From Octopus vulgaris (Eukaryota), in contig OX597816.1 in the NCBI GenBank assembly GCA_951406725.2, forward strand, positions 86,738,001 to 86,802,000: 64,000 nt of DNA, read 5' to 3'. The stretch's first letter is position 1. Each line of letters starts with the position of its first letter. Shown in pieces: positions 2,771-62,115 of this stretch. The position numbers were made by a program, and so were the translations under genes. The notes under the pieces were generated by a model that ran no database searches, was not told the DNA's origin, and worked only from the letters and a program-made list of their open reading frames with translations.

Positions 2771-2969
2771 CACACACGCACACACACACACACACACAAA
2801 CATATGTATAAAGGATTGTGGGTAAAGCCAAAACAATGCGAAGTAAAGCCAGGTAAATCACAAAAAAGCAAATATGTGAATTAATTTAGACTTACCTTGT
2901 ATTCAATATTCCATATATATATATATAATTTGCGTTGTTAATTTGCACTTATACAGCTTAAAGGCAGAA

Positions 2970-3268
<299 letters not shown>

Positions 3269-23565: not shown

Positions 23566-24108
23566 ATAGAAATATTAAAATTACTAAGTCTCTCTAAAAG
23601 AGAACAGCGGCAGCGTTCCCGGAAAATAATAGTTATCGCCATACTAATATGGCATTCTTATAAAAATAAGAATAAAGCTGTCCGCTTATTAGCTCCATGA
23701 GGCCATCGCCTTAAGTTAGCTATTTGATACACAAACTGTATCCATATAACCTTCGAACAAGGGAGGTCAGTCGCTCCACACTACCTGACCGGCAGCTACA
23801 GACACGTTTCGGGGTATTGCCCCTTTTCAATGCAGCGTAGCCAGCCAGTAGGTGTCGCTTCCGACAATCTCTGTTCGATGGTTTTATTTACCTAGTTTCG
23901 GTGGAATACATCCACTTGTTTTCAATAATAGAAATATTAAAATTACTAAGTCTCTCTAAAAGAGAACAGCGGCAGCGTTCCCGGAAAATAATAGTTATCG
24001 CCATACTAATATGGCATTCTTATAAAAATACGAATAAAGCTGTCCGCTTATTAGCTCCATTCTTATTTTTATAAGAATGCATATTAGTATGGCGATAACT
24101 ATTATTTT
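23566..24108 (-). mobile_element. (TA)n-flanked partial-tandem cassette (362-bp period) with short inverted tail; retrozyme/pLTR-like
   Basis: 133-bp direct repeat at 23566-23698 and 23928-24060 (1 mismatch). 24061-24108 is an inverted copy of part of it. Internal hammerhead. Confidence 0.75.
23795..23836 (-). ncRNA. Minimal hammerhead, U3-A8 variant
   Basis: GCTGCA TTGAAAA GGGG CAATA CCCC GAAA CGTG TC TGTAGC. 6-bp helix I, 4-bp helix II, GUC site. Confidence 0.75.
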
Positions 24109-24213
24109 CATATATATATATATATATAAACATAGTCAAAAGGCGATAAAATAAATTATTATCGCCGGTGATCTAGCACAAAAGACATTTTAGCCATAGG
24201 CTATATGTTATTC

Positions 24214-24785
<572 letters not shown>

Positions 24786-28407: not shown

Positions 28408-30373
<1,966 letters not shown>

Positions 30374-36857: not shown

Positions 36858-39800
36858 TTCGTAACACAGAGTAGGTAAAAATGCCTCGGGGTCTTTAGTC
36901 ATCAGTCAAGTCACAAGAAGGAAATCAGACAGATAATACTTTCCTTAAGACGAACGCTATGCCCAATAACGCAGCTTTTTGCAAGACATCAATCTTGCAT
37001 GTGATTTCCAGTTGCCTTAAAAAGTTTTCAAGTTTCAATGCGATTGAGACCAACGCTCCGATCGCCACTGGTATCACTTTTACATTACCCTCTTGCATTC
37101 CATACAGTCTTGTCATTTCCAGTTTTAATTTGGAGTACTTGGTGATTTTTTAAACCTCTTTACTCACAACATTCATGTCATTTGGTATGGCTCCATCAAT
37201 GATTTGACAGTATTCGTCTCTCTTATTCAATATGACATAATCGGCTGACGGTGTTCGATTACACGATCCGTCTGAAAATCATTGTCGCAGAGCATCATTA
37301 CTTTTCCATCCTCCTGCATAACTTTACGTGGTACATGCTCATACCATTTCTGTGTTACTTTATATTAATATTTACGGCATAAGAGCCAATGAAGATATAC
37401 ACACACACTTTATGGTGGTAGCGCTTGCTTGTACTCTTTTTGTGCAAGGCTCTCACATCCACTTACCATGTGAGTCGCACTTTCCACACTCTTTCCACAG
37501 TCTGCATTTTTGGGTGTCAGAAGATTTAAACATGTTATACTTCACTGAATTGGTAGCGAGAGCCTGGTCTTCAGCAGCAATGATCAAGCTTTCGGTGGTA
37601 CGCTTCAAATCACATCGCTCAAGCTATGCTCACGGTACTGTATTATCCTTAACGTTTTGTGTATTCCTTTGAAACTATCCATGCATTCTCATTTCAAGAA
37701 GGTCTTCTTTTCTCTTCGCCTCAGCTCTTTGGTTAAACTTTTCGTTGCACATCATTTCATCTGCATTTATACCCCTATCTATCGCGGCAGGTCTTCATCA
37801 GTATTTATCAAATACTCGGTAAGCGTTCTTCTTTCACTCCTTATACAATGTTCTATACTAATTAGTCCCCTGCCACCATTCTGTCTTTTCATATATAGTC
37901 TGTTTATGTTTGCTTTGGGGTGTAGCGCCCCATGCAGCGTTCTCAACTTTCTCGTTCTTCTATCGAATGTTGATATTTCCTCTTTTGTCCATTTGAGTAT
38001 GTACCTACTATATCTGACTACTGCAAATACCTAGCTATTCTTTGTGGTAATCAAATTTTCTGCATTCAGGTTGGATTTCAACACTATCTTCACCCTTTCT
38101 TGATAAGCCTCGCTGACATTGACTTTCATTTCTCTGTATAGAATGCCCTCCAGCTCCAAAATCCCTAAATATCTAGGCCCACTACCGTCGGATTCACCCA
38201 TGGTCTCTCCTAATGTTAACCGTAATCCTCTGTAGGATACTTTATTCCCTCTTTTCATATTAAGTACTGAGCATTTGGTAATCCCAAATTCCATGCCGAT
38301 GTCCCTCCCACACTTCTGGGCTGTTTTGGTTAAGGAATCTATCTGTTTTTCAGATTTCCCAAACAATTTCAGGTCATCCATAAACAGAAGACGGTTCAAT
38401 GATGGGCTTTTCTTTCCACATCGGCAACCCATCTTAACTTTCCTAAATGTCATTTTTATGGGTATTACTGCAAATACAAAAAGTAACTGAGAAAACGAGT
38501 CACCTTAGAAGATTTCCCTTTTAATATTAACTTCTCCAAGGAATACATTACTTGAGTACAATTTGGTTTTCCACTCTTTCATGCTATGCATCAGAAAATT
38601 GGTGGTGTTGTCAGCAACACCAATCATCTGCGGGCATTCAACGATGCAAGAATGAGGCACCATATCACATGCCTTCTTAAAGTCATGTTGGTATGATGCT
38701 TTTTACAATGCCTCAAATCTGTTTTTTCGATGATCAAGAACTCTTACTACATCCTTTTTGTTCCCTTGGTAGTATTTTTTACTGTGCCATGAAAGAATAT
38801 GACTTTGCCGCACTTCTTCCATTGTCTTCCAGATTATGTTTAGGCATGTTATGGGGCGGTAGTTTCCTACAATATTCCCCTTTTTTCTATCTTTCATTAC
38901 AAGTATAGTCCTCCTAGTCACCCTCAACGCGGGGACACACTCATTCAATTAGGCTGCTAGTCCTTCATACACCACGTGGCATCTCTTGAGCCAGAAGCCA
39001 TGAATATCATCTGGTCTGGGTGCTTTCCAGTTAAGCACTTTACCCACTTGTTCTTTCACATCACCCGTGTTTATGACAATATTCTTTTGTTTCTTTTCTC
39101 CTCGTAATTCTCTGTTGATAGTTCCTATCCACATTGCATCCCCTTTATGCACCTCATTGTTTCCCCATAATCCGCTCCAGAACTCCTTGGATTTAACTGC
39201 ATCAGGGTCAACATTTTCCCTATTGTCTCCTCCTAACGTTTGGAAGAATTGCTTCTTGTTATTTTTGAACAATCTGCTCTCCTCGAACTCCTTTTTCTTT
39301 TCACAAATTTGATCTTCTGGCTTTTTGCCATGGTCCTCTGTTTTAACTGCTCTATTACTGCATCACACCCGTTCTTTCATATTTTATATTTCTTTTCTTC
39401 TCTAATATTTCTCGGTCGGTCTTTTTCCCATTTTCCCAGTATCCTCTTACCATTGCTCAATTTTTCCTAGATCTTGCCTTGCCCCCATTATGTCCCTTTC
39501 AATGCGTCGTGTCCACCATGGTTCGTTTGCTCCACCATATTTTGTTCTCTTAAGTTGTAACTTCTCTTCAACAAGTAGCGCAATACTCGGAGAAGATTTC
39601 TTGTTTGTCTTATGTCTTGGATGTATGGTATGACAGTATTATTCTTTTGCGCTACTTTATTTATCATATTCCTATCTACCCTTTTCGTATTCATGGGGAT
39701 TTTTCCTTCTGGATCATTCATCAAGTCGGTGAGTCATCTTTGAATTTCAAGCAACTCATTATCTAGTTGATTCATTCCCCTGCATTTCCGCCCACTACAG

Positions 39801-44167: not shown

Positions 44168-44365
44168 TAATAATTATAATAATTATAATGATGATGATGA
44201 TGATAACATCGAAAAACACCTTAAGGATAAGTATGCAGGTTCGAAATTTCTCCATAACACCTGATGAAGGCTGGAGGGTATATCAGCCGATACGTTGTGT
44301 TAACAACAAACAAGATGAAAACAAATATCCGTCAAATGTAAATAATGTAAATATTATAAATAATG
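43985..44365 (+). mobile_element. Composite element: tRNA-like head + (AAT)n + hammerhead-bearing tail
   Basis: Head GGGCTACTAACCCCAAGATTCCGAGTTCGATTCCAGGCAGTGACCTGAA, (AAT)n ~44055-44205, then a tail homologous to 46800-46895 (minus). Confidence 0.8.
44255..44302 (+). ncRNA. Minimal hammerhead with one core mutation
   Basis: TAACAC CTGATGA A GGCTG GAGGGTATAT CAGCC GATA CG TT GTGTTA. GAAA mutated to GATA. Confidence 0.75.
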
Positions 44366-44745: not shown

Positions 44746-45510
44746 CAGGGTATGTAAGGTATTTGGGGACATACCTTTTTTAGGTCATTATTGCATTTTT
44801 GCAAACTCTGTATAATCATTGTTTCAGAAAATAATAATGGCAGACACTCAGCTTGCTCTAGAAATGAAGAGGCATGCAGTTATTGTAGTTTTAAAGGCTG
44901 AGCATAGCGATTTAGAATTATCTCGATTTCTAAAAGTTGCCAGATCTTTCGTCTACAAAATTTGTAAGGAGCTAGAGACTGAAGATGGAAACGTATCACC
45001 AGTATTAAAGCATAAAAAGCATTCTAAACGCTCTGAAATTATCAGAAACTTTGAATTTATCCAGCAAGTTAAACAGACCATTCATTACAACCCCAAAAAG
45101 TATAAGAAGGAACACTAAGAAATGTTGTCCACGAAGACATCAGATATAAATCTTATATGATGGGGAAAGGCCAGTTTGTCAGGAAAGGCAAAAGAATATC
45201 ATTACATCAGATCTAAAAGGCTCTTAAAGAACTGAAGAAACTGAAAACTCCAGCAGATTTGATTTGGTTTTACTCAAATGAGAAAAACTTCGACCAAGAT
45301 CAAAATTTAACAGAAGAAATGACAGATGGTGATGTGCAGATCCTTCTGAAGTTCCAAATGTTATGCATACAAAATTTCCTGAAACTGTTATGGTTGTCAG
45401 CAATGAAGGACATGTGATGCCTCCTTACTTCTTTCCACAATGCCTTAGAGTTAACTCTGTCGCCTACGTTGTGGTCCTGGAAATAACTGTTAAGCCCTGG
45501 ATAGATATAT
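44746..45510 (+). mobile_element. 3'-truncated IS630-Tc1-mariner transposon, DD37D/maT-like
   Basis: TA+CAGGG start. ATG 44837 MADTQLALEMKRHAVIV...ELSRFLKVARSFVYK; WFYSNEKNFDQDQ; HTKFPETVMVVSNEGHVMPPYFFPQCLRVNSVAYVVVLEITVKPWI. Confidence 0.8.
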
Positions 45511-45822
45511 GTAACTATTCCTTGAGATCAAGAAACTCTGAGTGAAGACGTAAGCCAAAGTGTTTTAAAAATATATGACACTAATACACACACACTCACA
45601 CATGCACACACGCACACGCAAACACACACACATACACACAGCTGTGCACATGCATACACGCGTGCACATGTTGACATACATAAATTATACACATATCGTT
45701 ATGTGTATTATACACATGCGTGTGCGTGTGTGTGTGAGTGTGTGTGTATTAGTTTCATATATTTTTAAAACACTTTGGCTTACGTCTTCACTCAGAGTTT
45801 CTCGATCTCAATCAATAGTTAC
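45511..45822. repeat. ~105-bp inverted repeat with (CA)n/(TG)n inner ends
   Basis: GTAACTATT..TTGAGATCAAGAAACTCTGAGTGAAGACGTAAGCCAAAGTGTTTTAAAAATATATGA.ACTAATACAC and its reverse complement ending at 45822. Confidence 0.92.
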
Positions 45823-45989
45823 ACGAAGAAAGGGAACGAGAAACACGAATTAGCGGAGCTCACAGTGACTTAGCTTTAAATGACTATTATTATTCCACGC
45901 AACTTAACAGTATTGACTACATATTTTGCTTAATTACATTTCACACTTGTGTGAAACTACCCTACCAATATATAATACACATACACACA

Positions 45990-46802: not shown

Positions 46803-46844
46803 CGCAGCTTTTCGGCTGATTTACTCTCCAGCCTTCATCAGGTG
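46803..46844 (-). ncRNA. Degenerate hammerhead, same family as 44255-44302
   Basis: CAC CTGATGA A GGCTG GAGAGTAAAT CAGCC GAAA AGCT GCG. Confidence 0.6.
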
Positions 46845-47045
46845 TCTTGGTAGAATTTCGAACCCAACCCTGGGTTCTCATTCCTAAGGTATTTTGTGAC
46901 TCACGTGGTAAAAATTCTGGAGAGAAATACGAATTCACTTGTCTATATAAATGTGGATATGCTGATTAGCTTTTATATGTTCCGATGACGCTTGGTAGGA
47001 AATATAGGAGGTAAGTTTTCCTAGCATTTCTAGATTTATCGGAAT

Positions 47046-47745: not shown

Positions 47746-47791
<46 letters not shown>

Positions 47792-48074
47792 CAACAATTG
47801 AGGGTAAAATTAATTAATTATTAATCAATTTCACCAAGTATTCAGTATGTAAAGGGACCATTTAAGGCGAATTCAAATTATTACATTATATAAAAGGGCT
47901 TAGTAAAATAAATTACTTTGCCACATACTGAACTCATTAGAAATAGCAGCTAAAAAAACTTTTTTAAAACTATTTCTAATACTTAAAGAAAATCTCTCTC
48001 ATATAGTGTTTGCTCAATTCAACTCACGAAAGTATGGGGGTAAAGACATTAAAAAATCAAATGCTAAGGTTATT

Positions 48075-48126
48075 TGAGAACGTACGTTTCAAGATTAGTC
48101 AACTCGACATTTCTATCATCAGCTCA
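48075..48126 (-). ncRNA. Minimal hammerhead with intact core (left arm)
   Basis: Reverse complement of 48913-48964. Confidence 0.8.
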
Positions 48127-48912
48127 GAACTCCTTGGTTTGGATTTGAAAACACTGAAAGTGGGAGCATACCCTTTCGGCTTCTTATCGCTTCTGAAGAT
48201 CTGCTCGAAACTAACAGTGCCAGCAAACCCAAAATATGCAAGCGAAGAATTTCTGCTCTCCTTTCGACCAGCGTGGGCTAAAATCAGTAAACACTATGCT
48301 TTTTCGGTAAAATCCGAAGCATTAAATAGAGAGAGATGAATTATAATTTCAACAATTGAGGGTAAAATTAATTAATTATTAATCAATTTCACCAAGTATT
48401 CAGTATGTAAAGGGACCATTTAAGGCGAATTCAAATTATTACATTATATAAAAGGGCTTAGTAAAATAAATTACTTTGCCACATACTGAACTCATTAGAA
48501 ATAGCAGCTAAAAAAAAAAGTTTTTTTAGCTGCTATTTCTAATGAGTTCAGTATGTGGCAAAGTAATTTATTTTACTAAGCCCTTTTATATAATGTAATA
48601 ATTTGAATTCGCCTTAAATGGTCCCTTTACATACTGAATACTTGGTGAAATTGATTAATAATTAATTAATTTTACCCTCAATTGTTGAAATTATAATTCA
48701 TCTCTCTCTATTTAATGCTTCGGATTTTACCGAAAAAGCATAGTGTTTACTGATTTTAGCCCACGCTGGTGGAAAGGGGAGAGCAGAAATTCTTCGCTTG
48801 CATATTTTGGGTTTGCTGGCACTGTTAGTTTCGAGCAGATCTTCAGAAGCGATAAGAAGCCGAAAGGGTATGCTCCCACTTTCAGTGTTTTCAAATCCAA
48901 ACCAAGGAGTTC

Positions 48913-48964
48913 TGAGCTGATGATAGAAATGTCGAGTTGACTAATCTTGAAACGTACGTTCTCA
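48913..48964 (+). ncRNA. Minimal hammerhead with intact core (right arm)
   Basis: TGAG CTGATGA T AGA AAT GTCG AGT TGAC TAA TCT T GAAA CGTACG TT CTCA. 10-bp palindrome AACGTACGTT, GUU site. Confidence 0.8.
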
Positions 48965-49155
48965 AATAACCTTTGCATTTGATTTTTTAATGTCTTTACC
49001 CCCATACTTTCGTGAGTTGAATTGAGCAAACACTATATGAGAGAGATTTTCTTTAAGTATTAGAAATAGTTTTTAAAAAGTTTTTTTAGCTGCTATTTCT
49101 AATGAGTTCAGTATGTGGCAAAGTAATTTATTTTACTAAGCCCTTTTATATAATG

Positions 49156-49196
<41 letters not shown>

Positions 49197-60228: not shown

Positions 60229-60265
<37 letters not shown>

Positions 60266-60468
60266 TACATATATAGGTATTTATATATGTGTATGTATAT
60301 GTATATATATGTACATATATATGTATGTATGGATATATATATATATATATGAATAATTTACAAAATAAGAGCAAAAACAATATTCTAATGCTAAATATGC
60401 CGATAAAAAGACAAAATTGTCAATAACGTCTCGAAACAAACCGATAGAAATTTCTTAAAAATCTGTTA

Positions 60469-60529
60469 TTACCGTATTGGTCCCAATTTCGGGGTTAATT
60501 CATAAAAATGTTCCCCTCTTCAGCGATAA
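60469..60529 (-). ncRNA. Type I hammerhead with intact core (left arm)
   Basis: TTATCG CTGAAGA GGGG AACATTTTTATGAATTAA CCCC GAAA TTGG GA CCAA TA CGGTAA. Confidence 0.87.
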
Positions 60530-60561
60530 ATACGTGAGATATAAGTGAAATACTTACGTAT

Positions 60562-60622
60562 TTATCGCTGAAGAGGGGAAAATTCTTATGAATTAACCCC
60601 GAAATTGGGACCAATACGGTAA
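60562..60622 (+). ncRNA. Type I hammerhead with intact core (right arm)
   Basis: TTATCG CTGAAGA GGGG AAA ATTC TTAT GAAT TAA CCCC GAAA TTGG GA CCAA TA CGGTAA. AUA site. Confidence 0.9.
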
Positions 60623-60839
60623 TAACAGATTTTAAAGAAATTTCTATCGGATTGTTTCGAGACGCATAAATTATAATGGTTATTGACAATTTTGTCGTTT
60701 TATCGGCATATTTGGCATTAGAATGTTGCTTTTGCCCTTATTTTGTAAATTATTTATAAATTTAACCTTTAAAGGTATTTTTTGATATGCTGGCCATTGA
60801 TAAAAATTTTTTCACGAAAAAAATTTTATCCTACATTAG

Positions 60840-60893
<54 letters not shown>

Positions 60894-61245: not shown

Positions 61246-61326
<81 letters not shown>

Positions 61327-61364
61327 TAATAAGAATAACAATAATAATAAGAAGAAGAAGGAGT

Positions 61365-61395
<31 letters not shown>

Positions 61396-61743
61396 GAAGG
61401 AGGAGGAGAAGAAGAAGAAGAAGAAGAAGAAGAAGAAGAAGAAGGAGGAGCAGGGGGAGGAGGAGGAGGAGGAGAAGAAGGAGAAGAAGGAGAAGAAGGA
61501 GAAGAAGGAGAAGAAGGAGAAGAAGGAGAAGAAGAAGAAGAAGAAGAGGAGGAGTAGGAAGAAGAAGAAGAAGAAGAAGAAGAAGAAGGAGAAGAAGAAG
61601 AAGAAGAAGAAGAAGAAGAAGAAGAAGGAGAAGAAGAAGAAGAAGAAGAAGAAGAAGAAGAAGAAGAAGAAGAAGAAGAAGAAGAAGAAGAAGAAGAAGA
61701 AGAAGAAGAAGAAGAAGAAGAAGAAGAAGAAGAAGAAGAAGAA
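61246..61743 (+). repeat. ~500-bp (AAT)n-(GAA/GGA)n compound microsatellite
   Basis: Direct reading. It explains the poly-F/S/R ORFs here. Confidence 0.98.
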
Positions 61744-62115
61744 AACTGGAACAACAAAATATGAATGATAAAACGATGGCAAGAAAATCGCTTATAAGGC
61801 AAATATTGGGCTAAACTAATCAAAAAAGAAGTAGACAAAGTAAAATTGCAAGAATGGCTGAGAAATTCAGGATTAGAAGCAGAGACTGAAGGATATTTAA
61901 TTGCAGCAGAAGATCAAAACCTCCCTACCACAAATCACAAATCACTCATAATGTCTCTGGCCGCCAAGTTCTGGCTAAGAAAGAATATATTCACTGACAC
62001 GACAGAGTTGGGGCTTATATACACGAGAGTTGGGACTTATATGCTAACACTACGAAACAGAAAAAAAGATAGTATATGAACACCCCAGAAAAGGTCACAG
62101 AAAATGAGAAGGCCT
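61744..62115 (+). mobile_element. R4/Dong-clade internal fragment
   Basis: KRWQENRL*GKYWAKL...QEWLRNSGLEAETEGYLIAAEDQNLPTTNH matches the clade's post-RT 'LHG...WL...ETEG...AAQDQ' segment. Confidence 0.8.

Follow-up and report, generated by a model that had tools for sequence, protein, structure and literature searches.

A foldback lies within the 64,000-nucleotide stretch of the Octopus vulgaris genome analysed here (contig OX597816.1; this whole stretch is the window, and its own numbering is used below). The window is AT-rich (GC 0.28-0.40) with 107 microsatellite rows, a makeup like that of an animal genome, and may resemble cephalopod repeats. In a self-comparison of the window, the inverted arms appeared as two pairs, 60427-60538 with 60553-60664 (96% identity) and 60342-60427 with 60679-60764 (91%), around a short spacer. 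When 60352-60538 was aligned with 60553-60754, the arms were identical at 177 of 187 aligned bases (95%) and differed by one 15-bp gap, the extra bases being in the right arm. A sequence-only reading of the window had described a foldback with two back-to-back hammerheads, whose arms had accumulated substitutions and an indel of about 15 bp, and this description is borne out. It had also drawn the foldback from 60352 to 60840; the arms reach only to 60754, and the remaining 86 bp are a one-sided extension (the 'tail'). The features are collected in Table 1.

Table 1. Features at and around the foldback, in window coordinates
Feature	Positions	Strand	Description
Left flank	60265-60351		Microsatellite of degenerate (TA)n/(TATG)n; probable target of the insertion
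Minus copy of the element	60352-60557	-	Starts at 60557, 34 nt upstream of its own C3; without the last 86 bp; private 15-bp deletion
Left type I hammerhead core	60475-60523	-	Helix I strands 60524-60529/60469-60474; predicted cut after 60475
Spacer, 14 nt	60539-60552	-	Not foreign; belongs to the minus copy as its upstream sequence
Junction	60553-60557		The two copies overlap by 5 bases, of which 4 match and one is a G-T
Plus copy of the element	60553-60840	+	5'-truncated 12-15 nt upstream of C3; 3' end complete
Right type I hammerhead core	60568-60616	+	Helix I 60562-60567/60617-60622; helix II 60575-60578/60597-60600 plus distal stem; helix III 60604-60615; predicted cut after 60616
15-bp segment	60664-60678	+	In the right arm and in the family (continuous depth); deleted from the left arm
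One-sided 3' extension (tail), 86 bp	60755-60840	+	Beyond the symmetric part
Right flank	60841-60891		Perfect (TA)25

The minus copy really starts at 60557, because the spacer is the element's own upstream sequence: in contigs of the repeat family from the sequencing runs X1, X4, and X16 (see below), loose ends before 60553/60556 match the spacer in reverse complement. For the junction, a match of four of five bases or better is found in 3.4% of random position pairs, with a 5-base stretch that was picked after the junction had been seen.

The TA microsatellite begins immediately at the left end of the foldback and, on the right, directly after the tail. As the insertion sits in (TA)n and both flanks are TA microsatellite, a target-site duplication is unreadable there. 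No frame of at least 90 aa was found over 60352-60840, and no RT/GIY-YIG frame at the locus; the lack of such a long frame means that the locus is not autonomous. A direct repeat of the arm was not found within the window, that is, there is no head-to-tail tandem of the retrozyme type at the locus.

An assembly artefact was ruled out because the differences between the arms (9 of 184 positions and the deletion) fall on both arms relative to the family. Nine arm substitutions could be placed against the family: five mark the left arm, three the right arm, and one both, and the deletion is on the left. Decay appears to have come later, on both arms.

The minus copy opens exactly on a splice-donor-like word, GTAAGT (60552-60557, minus strand), which is also the start of a 6-bp hairpin. 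No AG was found between this word and helix I; thus, if GTAAGT is a donor, the ribozyme is intronic. A promoter and an intron of Penelope are the subject of PMC2377424.

Hammerhead motifs in the two arms

In both arms, CUGAAGA, GAAA, and UA occur in this order, and 6 bp in helix I, 4 bp in helix II, and 4 bp in helix III were counted (+60568-60616 and -60523-60475), in agreement with the sequence-only reading. A descriptor scan of the window gave three matches, all with a score of 14 (both arms and one at 28632); in 100 shuffles, the mean was 0.03 matches at 9 bp or more, and no match was found at 13 bp or more. Both arms carry the full type I hammerhead motif, beyond chance. The two differences between the arms inside the motif (60581 and 60585) lie in the distal extension of helix II, where they had been noticed before; the left hammerhead is weakened there, with one pair broken and one weakened.

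The two hammerheads had been called intact, which is right for the sequence and doubtful for the fold. With the upstream bases included, the hammerhead fold is predicted to lie 5.5-6.3 kcal/mol above the best fold, and 0.8-1.0 kcal/mol above it when these bases are trimmed, in a model that does not cover tertiary contacts and help from proteins. The upstream bases 60556-60562 are predicted to pair with 60613-60618 across the cleavage site, beating the ribozyme fold by about 6 kcal/mol. In a read-through RNA of either strand, both ribozymes are predicted to be buried in duplex (helix probabilities 0.000). The Rfam hammerhead models gave no match at the gathering threshold in the window and none at E<=10 on a single arm. 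Matches of miRNA-precursor and generic hairpin models of Rfam on the foldback were all below gathering and are expected of any long hairpin; we rejected them.

None of the 13 core bases differs between the arms, compared with 9 of 171 other bases (Fisher p=0.51), and none of the 41 bases of core plus helices differs, compared with 9 of 143 others (p=0.10). Left out of this comparison were base 60555, at the junction, and the end of the TA run. Across the family, none of the 13 core positions varies, compared with 25 of 236 others (p=0.24), after 7 positions at which the window has the rare letter had been dropped. All four family substitutions in the helices keep the pair, on one side only (three to G-U and one from G-U to A-U). 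This pattern would fit a real ribozyme family, without proving selection. Selection on the core was rejected: it is not significant between the arms or in the family, and there is no sign of it at the locus. The caution in the sequence-only reading, that retention of the core could be chance, was thus well placed, and the locus seems to have decayed since its insertion without detectable selection.

A high-copy family and the position of the turn

Part of the window is contained in 20 of the 24 sequencing runs listed (9 studies, 4 organism labels), and none of them contains half of it or is recorded as RNA. Contigs matching 60539-60840 numbered 4272, 3012, 3988, and 127 in four runs. In the three large runs, the summed contig depth, which is not a copy number, reaches 1e5-1e6 across most of the arm, compared with depths of 17-87 for the single long contigs that are listed. 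All four runs show the arm to be a repeat family of high copy number. No contig spans the locus itself. The depth rises towards the 3' end of the family; we did not use this rise as a truncation gradient because divergent subfamilies join at 60742-60748, as the loose ends there show. In fifteen contigs of X4, the sequence runs on into (AT)n beyond 60839, and a single contig of X16 stops at 60758 in DNA rich in TA, which hints at two natural ends of the family.

At four positions (60627, 60635, 60702, and 60728), both arms share a letter that is absent from 85-100% of the family depth. These shared letters point to one source for both arms. They may instead be a species or subfamily difference, as no contig spans the locus and the best run contains 39% of its words.

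Scans of metagenomes for two family motifs gave no match for either. A parent ORF was not found when 18 of the 78 long frames of the window were run against Pfam: the one match, to RVT_1, is weak, 22 kb away, and unlinked. Similarity of the arm to five other elements in the window did not rise above that of shuffles.

The 5' half of the core, upstream of the predicted cut, is present in both arms. A cleaved template would begin at the cut; therefore, the RNA copied here was uncleaved. Across the cut, the family depth goes from 203,851 to 180,134 in X1, from 299,272 to 203,461 in X2, from 62,460 to 19,127 in X4, and from 624 to 442 in X16, and no step up was seen in any of the four runs. A turn at the cleavage site is ruled out by the uncut 5' half in both arms and by the lack of a rise in depth at the cut. 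The turn had been placed about 10 bp upstream of the hammerheads. This is close for the right arm, on which the symmetry ends 12-15 nt upstream of C3, and not for the minus copy, which starts further upstream of its own C3 (Table 1).

Other copies of the family offered a comparison of breakpoints with the cleavage site. Three of the 9 joint rows listed are head-to-head junctions of other family copies; the other six (three skips and three backward joints of unstated kind) are unreadable as junctions. The partner arm starts at 60665 (X2) and 60744 (X2 and X4), that is, 49 and 128 nt past the cut. In these two junction types, 7-9 listed letters of the long copy lie beyond 60557; provided that the loose ends give the upstream letters correctly, the overlaps are 3 and 2 bases. 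The longer copy thus starts 34, 44, and 45 nt upstream of C3 in all three readable junction types, while the start of the partner is scattered. Detection of a junction needs a long copy that ends within 40 nt of the reference and is biased accordingly, and two X16 contigs run a median of 55 nt upstream; for both reasons, the 5' boundary is not fixed and the agreement is a hint only. The start of the longer copy may be fixed 34-45 nt upstream of the core and is likely the 5' end of the RNA. [quoted passage not shown]

Back-to-back hammerheads are common in the window, and turns are not generally at the ribozyme, since, of three other foldbacks, one turns about 121 nt beyond its cut, one 103-122 nt beyond it, and one within the motif. 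At 47788-49156, a non-coding 554-bp unit forms arms that are 99.5% identical, each with a type I hammerhead (+48917 and -48122) that has U-U at the base of helix II. Both arms include a 168-bp partial tandem with an identical tandem junction. An A/T tract marks the turn, with the cut 121 nt before it and the next core 396 nt after it; the one-sided tail is 95 bp, and the flanks are (TA)n. This foldback is young and is a cleaner test case than the one at 60352-60840. At 23566-24109, a 362-bp unit with TA flanks carries a hammerhead with the U3-A8 core variant (-23830 to 23801), a 133-bp partial tandem, and a 57-bp inverted piece that turns 103-122 nt past the cut. The foldback at 24128-24516 shares a (TA)n with the element on its left; 129 of 129 arm bases are identical, the turn is just 5' of a half-motif (GAAA/helix III/UA), and the tail is 86 bp, with a clear 5' core in neither arm. 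An older inverted pair (84%) at 2927-3136 lies between (TA)n and (ATAG)n and has a 42-bp one-sided extension; no hammerhead was seen in it. In the foldback at 60352-60840 and in these four, which are unrelated to it in sequence, a microsatellite is at the short end, and the one-sided extensions are 86, 95, 86, 56, and 42 bp, the 56-bp value being measured to the end of the unit. A sixth inverted pair (45510-45823), without these marks, mirrors a CA/TG microsatellite and was left out.

Some further elements of the window were observed. The third hammerhead (-28632) belongs to a direct partial tandem at 28456-29005 (91 bp repeated, unit of about 459 bp) in (TA)n; it has the CUGAAGA/UA type and the 4-bp helix III found at 60352-60840, with unrelated flanks. 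Two copies (87% alike) of a CUGAUGA hammerhead-like repeat, one of them beside (AAT)n, lie at 44238-44290 and 46812-46864 and were missed by the structured scans. The RVT_1 match is at 38031-38504 on the minus strand (E 6.5e-05, below the cut-off); with its FMDD motif, it looks like the remnant of a non-LTR retrotransposon. At 61246-62079, a 500-bp (TAA)n/(AAG)n run is followed by a coding-like stretch that resembles, by eye, the C-terminal part of a non-LTR retrotransposon and gave no Pfam match.

Origin of the inverted junction

We consider it probable that the locus consists of two head-to-head, 5'-truncated copies of the hammerhead-bearing end of a repeat, likely a Penelope-like element (PLE), in a TA microsatellite, and that they arose from two cDNAs on opposite target strands that annealed. 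The enzyme of the element would have nicked both strands of (TA)n, and, with uncleaved RNA of a single source as the template, reverse transcription would have begun at two internal sites separated by about 86 nt. One cDNA would have run near the 5' end of the RNA, 34 nt past the core, and the other would have stopped 12-15 nt past the core. The two cDNAs could then have paired over 5 bases, each being filled in on the other. Under this mechanism, the turn is near the ribozyme because the family RNA likely has its start about 45 nt before it, and not because of cleavage. More tentatively, PLE head-to-head insertions may arise by such double priming at two internal starts with annealing over 2-5 bases at the 3' ends of the cDNAs, here from a family RNA that would start about 45 nt upstream of a hammerhead predicted to be held off by the upstream strand; we would put this wider proposal at somewhat less than an even chance.

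The ownership of the spacer bears on this mechanism. The spacer belongs to the short-ended arm at 60352-60840 and at 48.5 kb, whereas at 24.0 kb, and probably at 24.3 kb too, the long-ended arm owns it; it is thus owned by the tail-less arm in 2 of the 4 hammerhead-linked foldbacks of the window, whose tails are 56-95 bp. Ownership by either arm would be expected if either cDNA can run further. In a snap-back, the spacer-owning arm is the template, so that the other arm cannot be longer. For a spacer on the short-ended arm, two cDNAs from both target strands would therefore fit better than a simple snap-back.

A fuller version of the snap-back is that one cDNA or antisense RNA primed itself at the 5-base hairpin and that the left 86 bp were lost later by a microsatellite-linked deletion. 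Self-priming was proposed for PLEs in PMC3846280, the geometry at 24.0 kb fits it, and so do the four non-family letters shared by both arms and the tandem junction at 48 kb, which is identical in the two arms. However, the copied arm is longer than its template by 86 bp here and by 95 bp at 48 kb, where the arms are nearly identical. A later deletion of the short ends would rescue the idea, but the contig ends at 60839 in X4 (15 contigs) and at 60758 in X16 hint at two natural ends instead, and a nearer perfect 5-bp hairpin at the end of the cDNA (-1.9 kcal/mol) went unused. We regard this course of events as unlikely. It is more unlikely still that the ribozyme set the turn without cleavage, by a stall of the RT or by an RNA beginning just upstream of helix I, so that inversions accumulate there. 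The 6-bp helix I of the right copy begins 6-9 nt after the start of that copy, and the family depth falls over 60550-60571, a fall that is confounded with the edge of the reference. Against this stand the scattered partner starts in the two family junctions (49 and 128 nt past the cut), the turns of three other foldbacks, which lie 103-122 nt beyond the cut or within the motif, and the insertion in vitro that hammerhead mutants left unchanged (PMC11167929); a pile-up of ends was not reported in the data, which are contigs only. A version with cleavage is excluded, both arms having the 5' half. That the inversion point is tied to the ribozyme itself, as had been suggested, is not supported in view of the uncut template, the depth in four of four runs, the partner starts, and the turns of the other foldbacks.

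Two long inverted arms around a short spacer, with TA on both sides, could also be read as a foldback DNA transposon (MITE) whose terminal inverted repeats are long and which is bordered by a TA duplication, the hammerheads being there by coincidence. This reading is already largely refuted, and we give it very little weight: the outer ends of the arms are unequal, the junction is rare (depth of 31-1935 at 60539-60549, compared with at least 1e5 across most of the arm in the large runs, three in number), other family copies have different junctions, and four unrelated hammerhead families in the window have PLE-type tandem or inverted layouts. Adoption by the host, with both ribozymes or the hairpin RNA kept by selection, could draw on the unchanged 41 bases of core and helices, but their p value is 0.10 at best, the helix II changes of the left arm break one pair and weaken one, and the read-through RNA is predicted to have no hammerhead helices (probabilities 0.000). 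Moreover, the motifs are on opposite strands and unable to pair in cis as a dimer. It seems to us the least probable of all.

Comparison with known elements

The arrangement at the locus is of a kind already on record for PLEs. In endonuclease-positive (EN+) PLEs (Penelope/Poseidon, Neptune, and Naiad), an inverted 5'-truncated copy, a one-sided tail of 30-40 bp, and a bias for (TA)n have been reported (PMC8557442), PLE pLTRs may be head-to-head inverted with a tail (PMC8557442, PMC3846280), and head-to-head junctions were found with a 15-bp overlap in one copy (PMC3846280). The present locus is like these insertions in its head-to-head inverted 5'-truncated copy with a short overlap, and in its tail on one arm, its (TA)n/AT-rich target without a readable target-site duplication, and a hammerhead in a terminal repeat. 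Unlike them, it has no ORF between or beside the arms, and its tail of 86 bp, compared with the published 30-40 bp, counts against the PLE reading. Membership in the PLEs is likely on the basis of architecture and motif, on which it rests because no RT/GIY-YIG frame at the locus and no parent element were found.

Hammerheads occur in PLE pLTRs, with opposite-strand pairs 100-700 bp apart in Schistosoma; a U3-A8 variant and, for these hammerheads, low activity in vitro were also reported, and most motifs are remnants of truncated PLEs (PMC4209133). Like the metazoan PLE hammerheads of that study, those at the locus are type I motifs with G10.1-C11.1 and a near-palindromic helix III; unlike them, they have 4 counted bp in helix III, more than in the minimal or 1-2 bp forms, there is no extra base after A9, and the cores are only 45 bp apart. 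Animal non-LTR retrozymes are tandem units that are short, AT-rich, non-coding, and high in copy number, with a type I hammerhead, and have been proposed to be non-autonomous PLE derivatives (PMC7229834, bioRxiv 10.64898/2026.07.22.740005). The 362-, 459-, and 554-bp tandem units elsewhere in the window are like these, whereas 60352-60840 has no head-to-tail repeat.

The PAc protein (Poseidon of Anolis carolinensis), a predicted dimer, nicks each strand of AT-rich DNA and extends both, has two internal start sites by which the tail is defined, and works on unprocessed RNA, and ribozyme mutants were without effect (PMC11167929). Nicking and extension of both strands, two RT starts, and uncleaved RNA are the ingredients of the mechanism proposed here; unlike our case, the tail of PAc is 30-40 bp, and the main text of that study models no inverted junction. 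Among the papers listed for the literature outside subscription, no two-cDNA model of the PLE inverted junction was found. In L1 twin priming, two target-strand primers are used and the cDNAs are joined by microhomology, with the 5' part inverted without duplication. At our locus, in contrast, the same stretch was copied twice.

The locus is a decaying end-piece of a very common repeat, likely a PLE, in a known kind of arrangement, and it offers a modest clue to mechanism. As debris of a retroelement it is ordinary, and its value is as a record of how PLEs insert, which is called unresolved in published work on PLEs. The copied RNA was uncut by its ribozyme here, in agreement with the one in vitro study (PMC11167929). 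The ownership of the spacer and the side of the tail separate a snap-back from double priming and are countable in any long-read assembly of the genome, which is rich in repeats. If double priming is true, its junction signature would be readable in genomes, and a census would decide between it and the published idea of self-priming.
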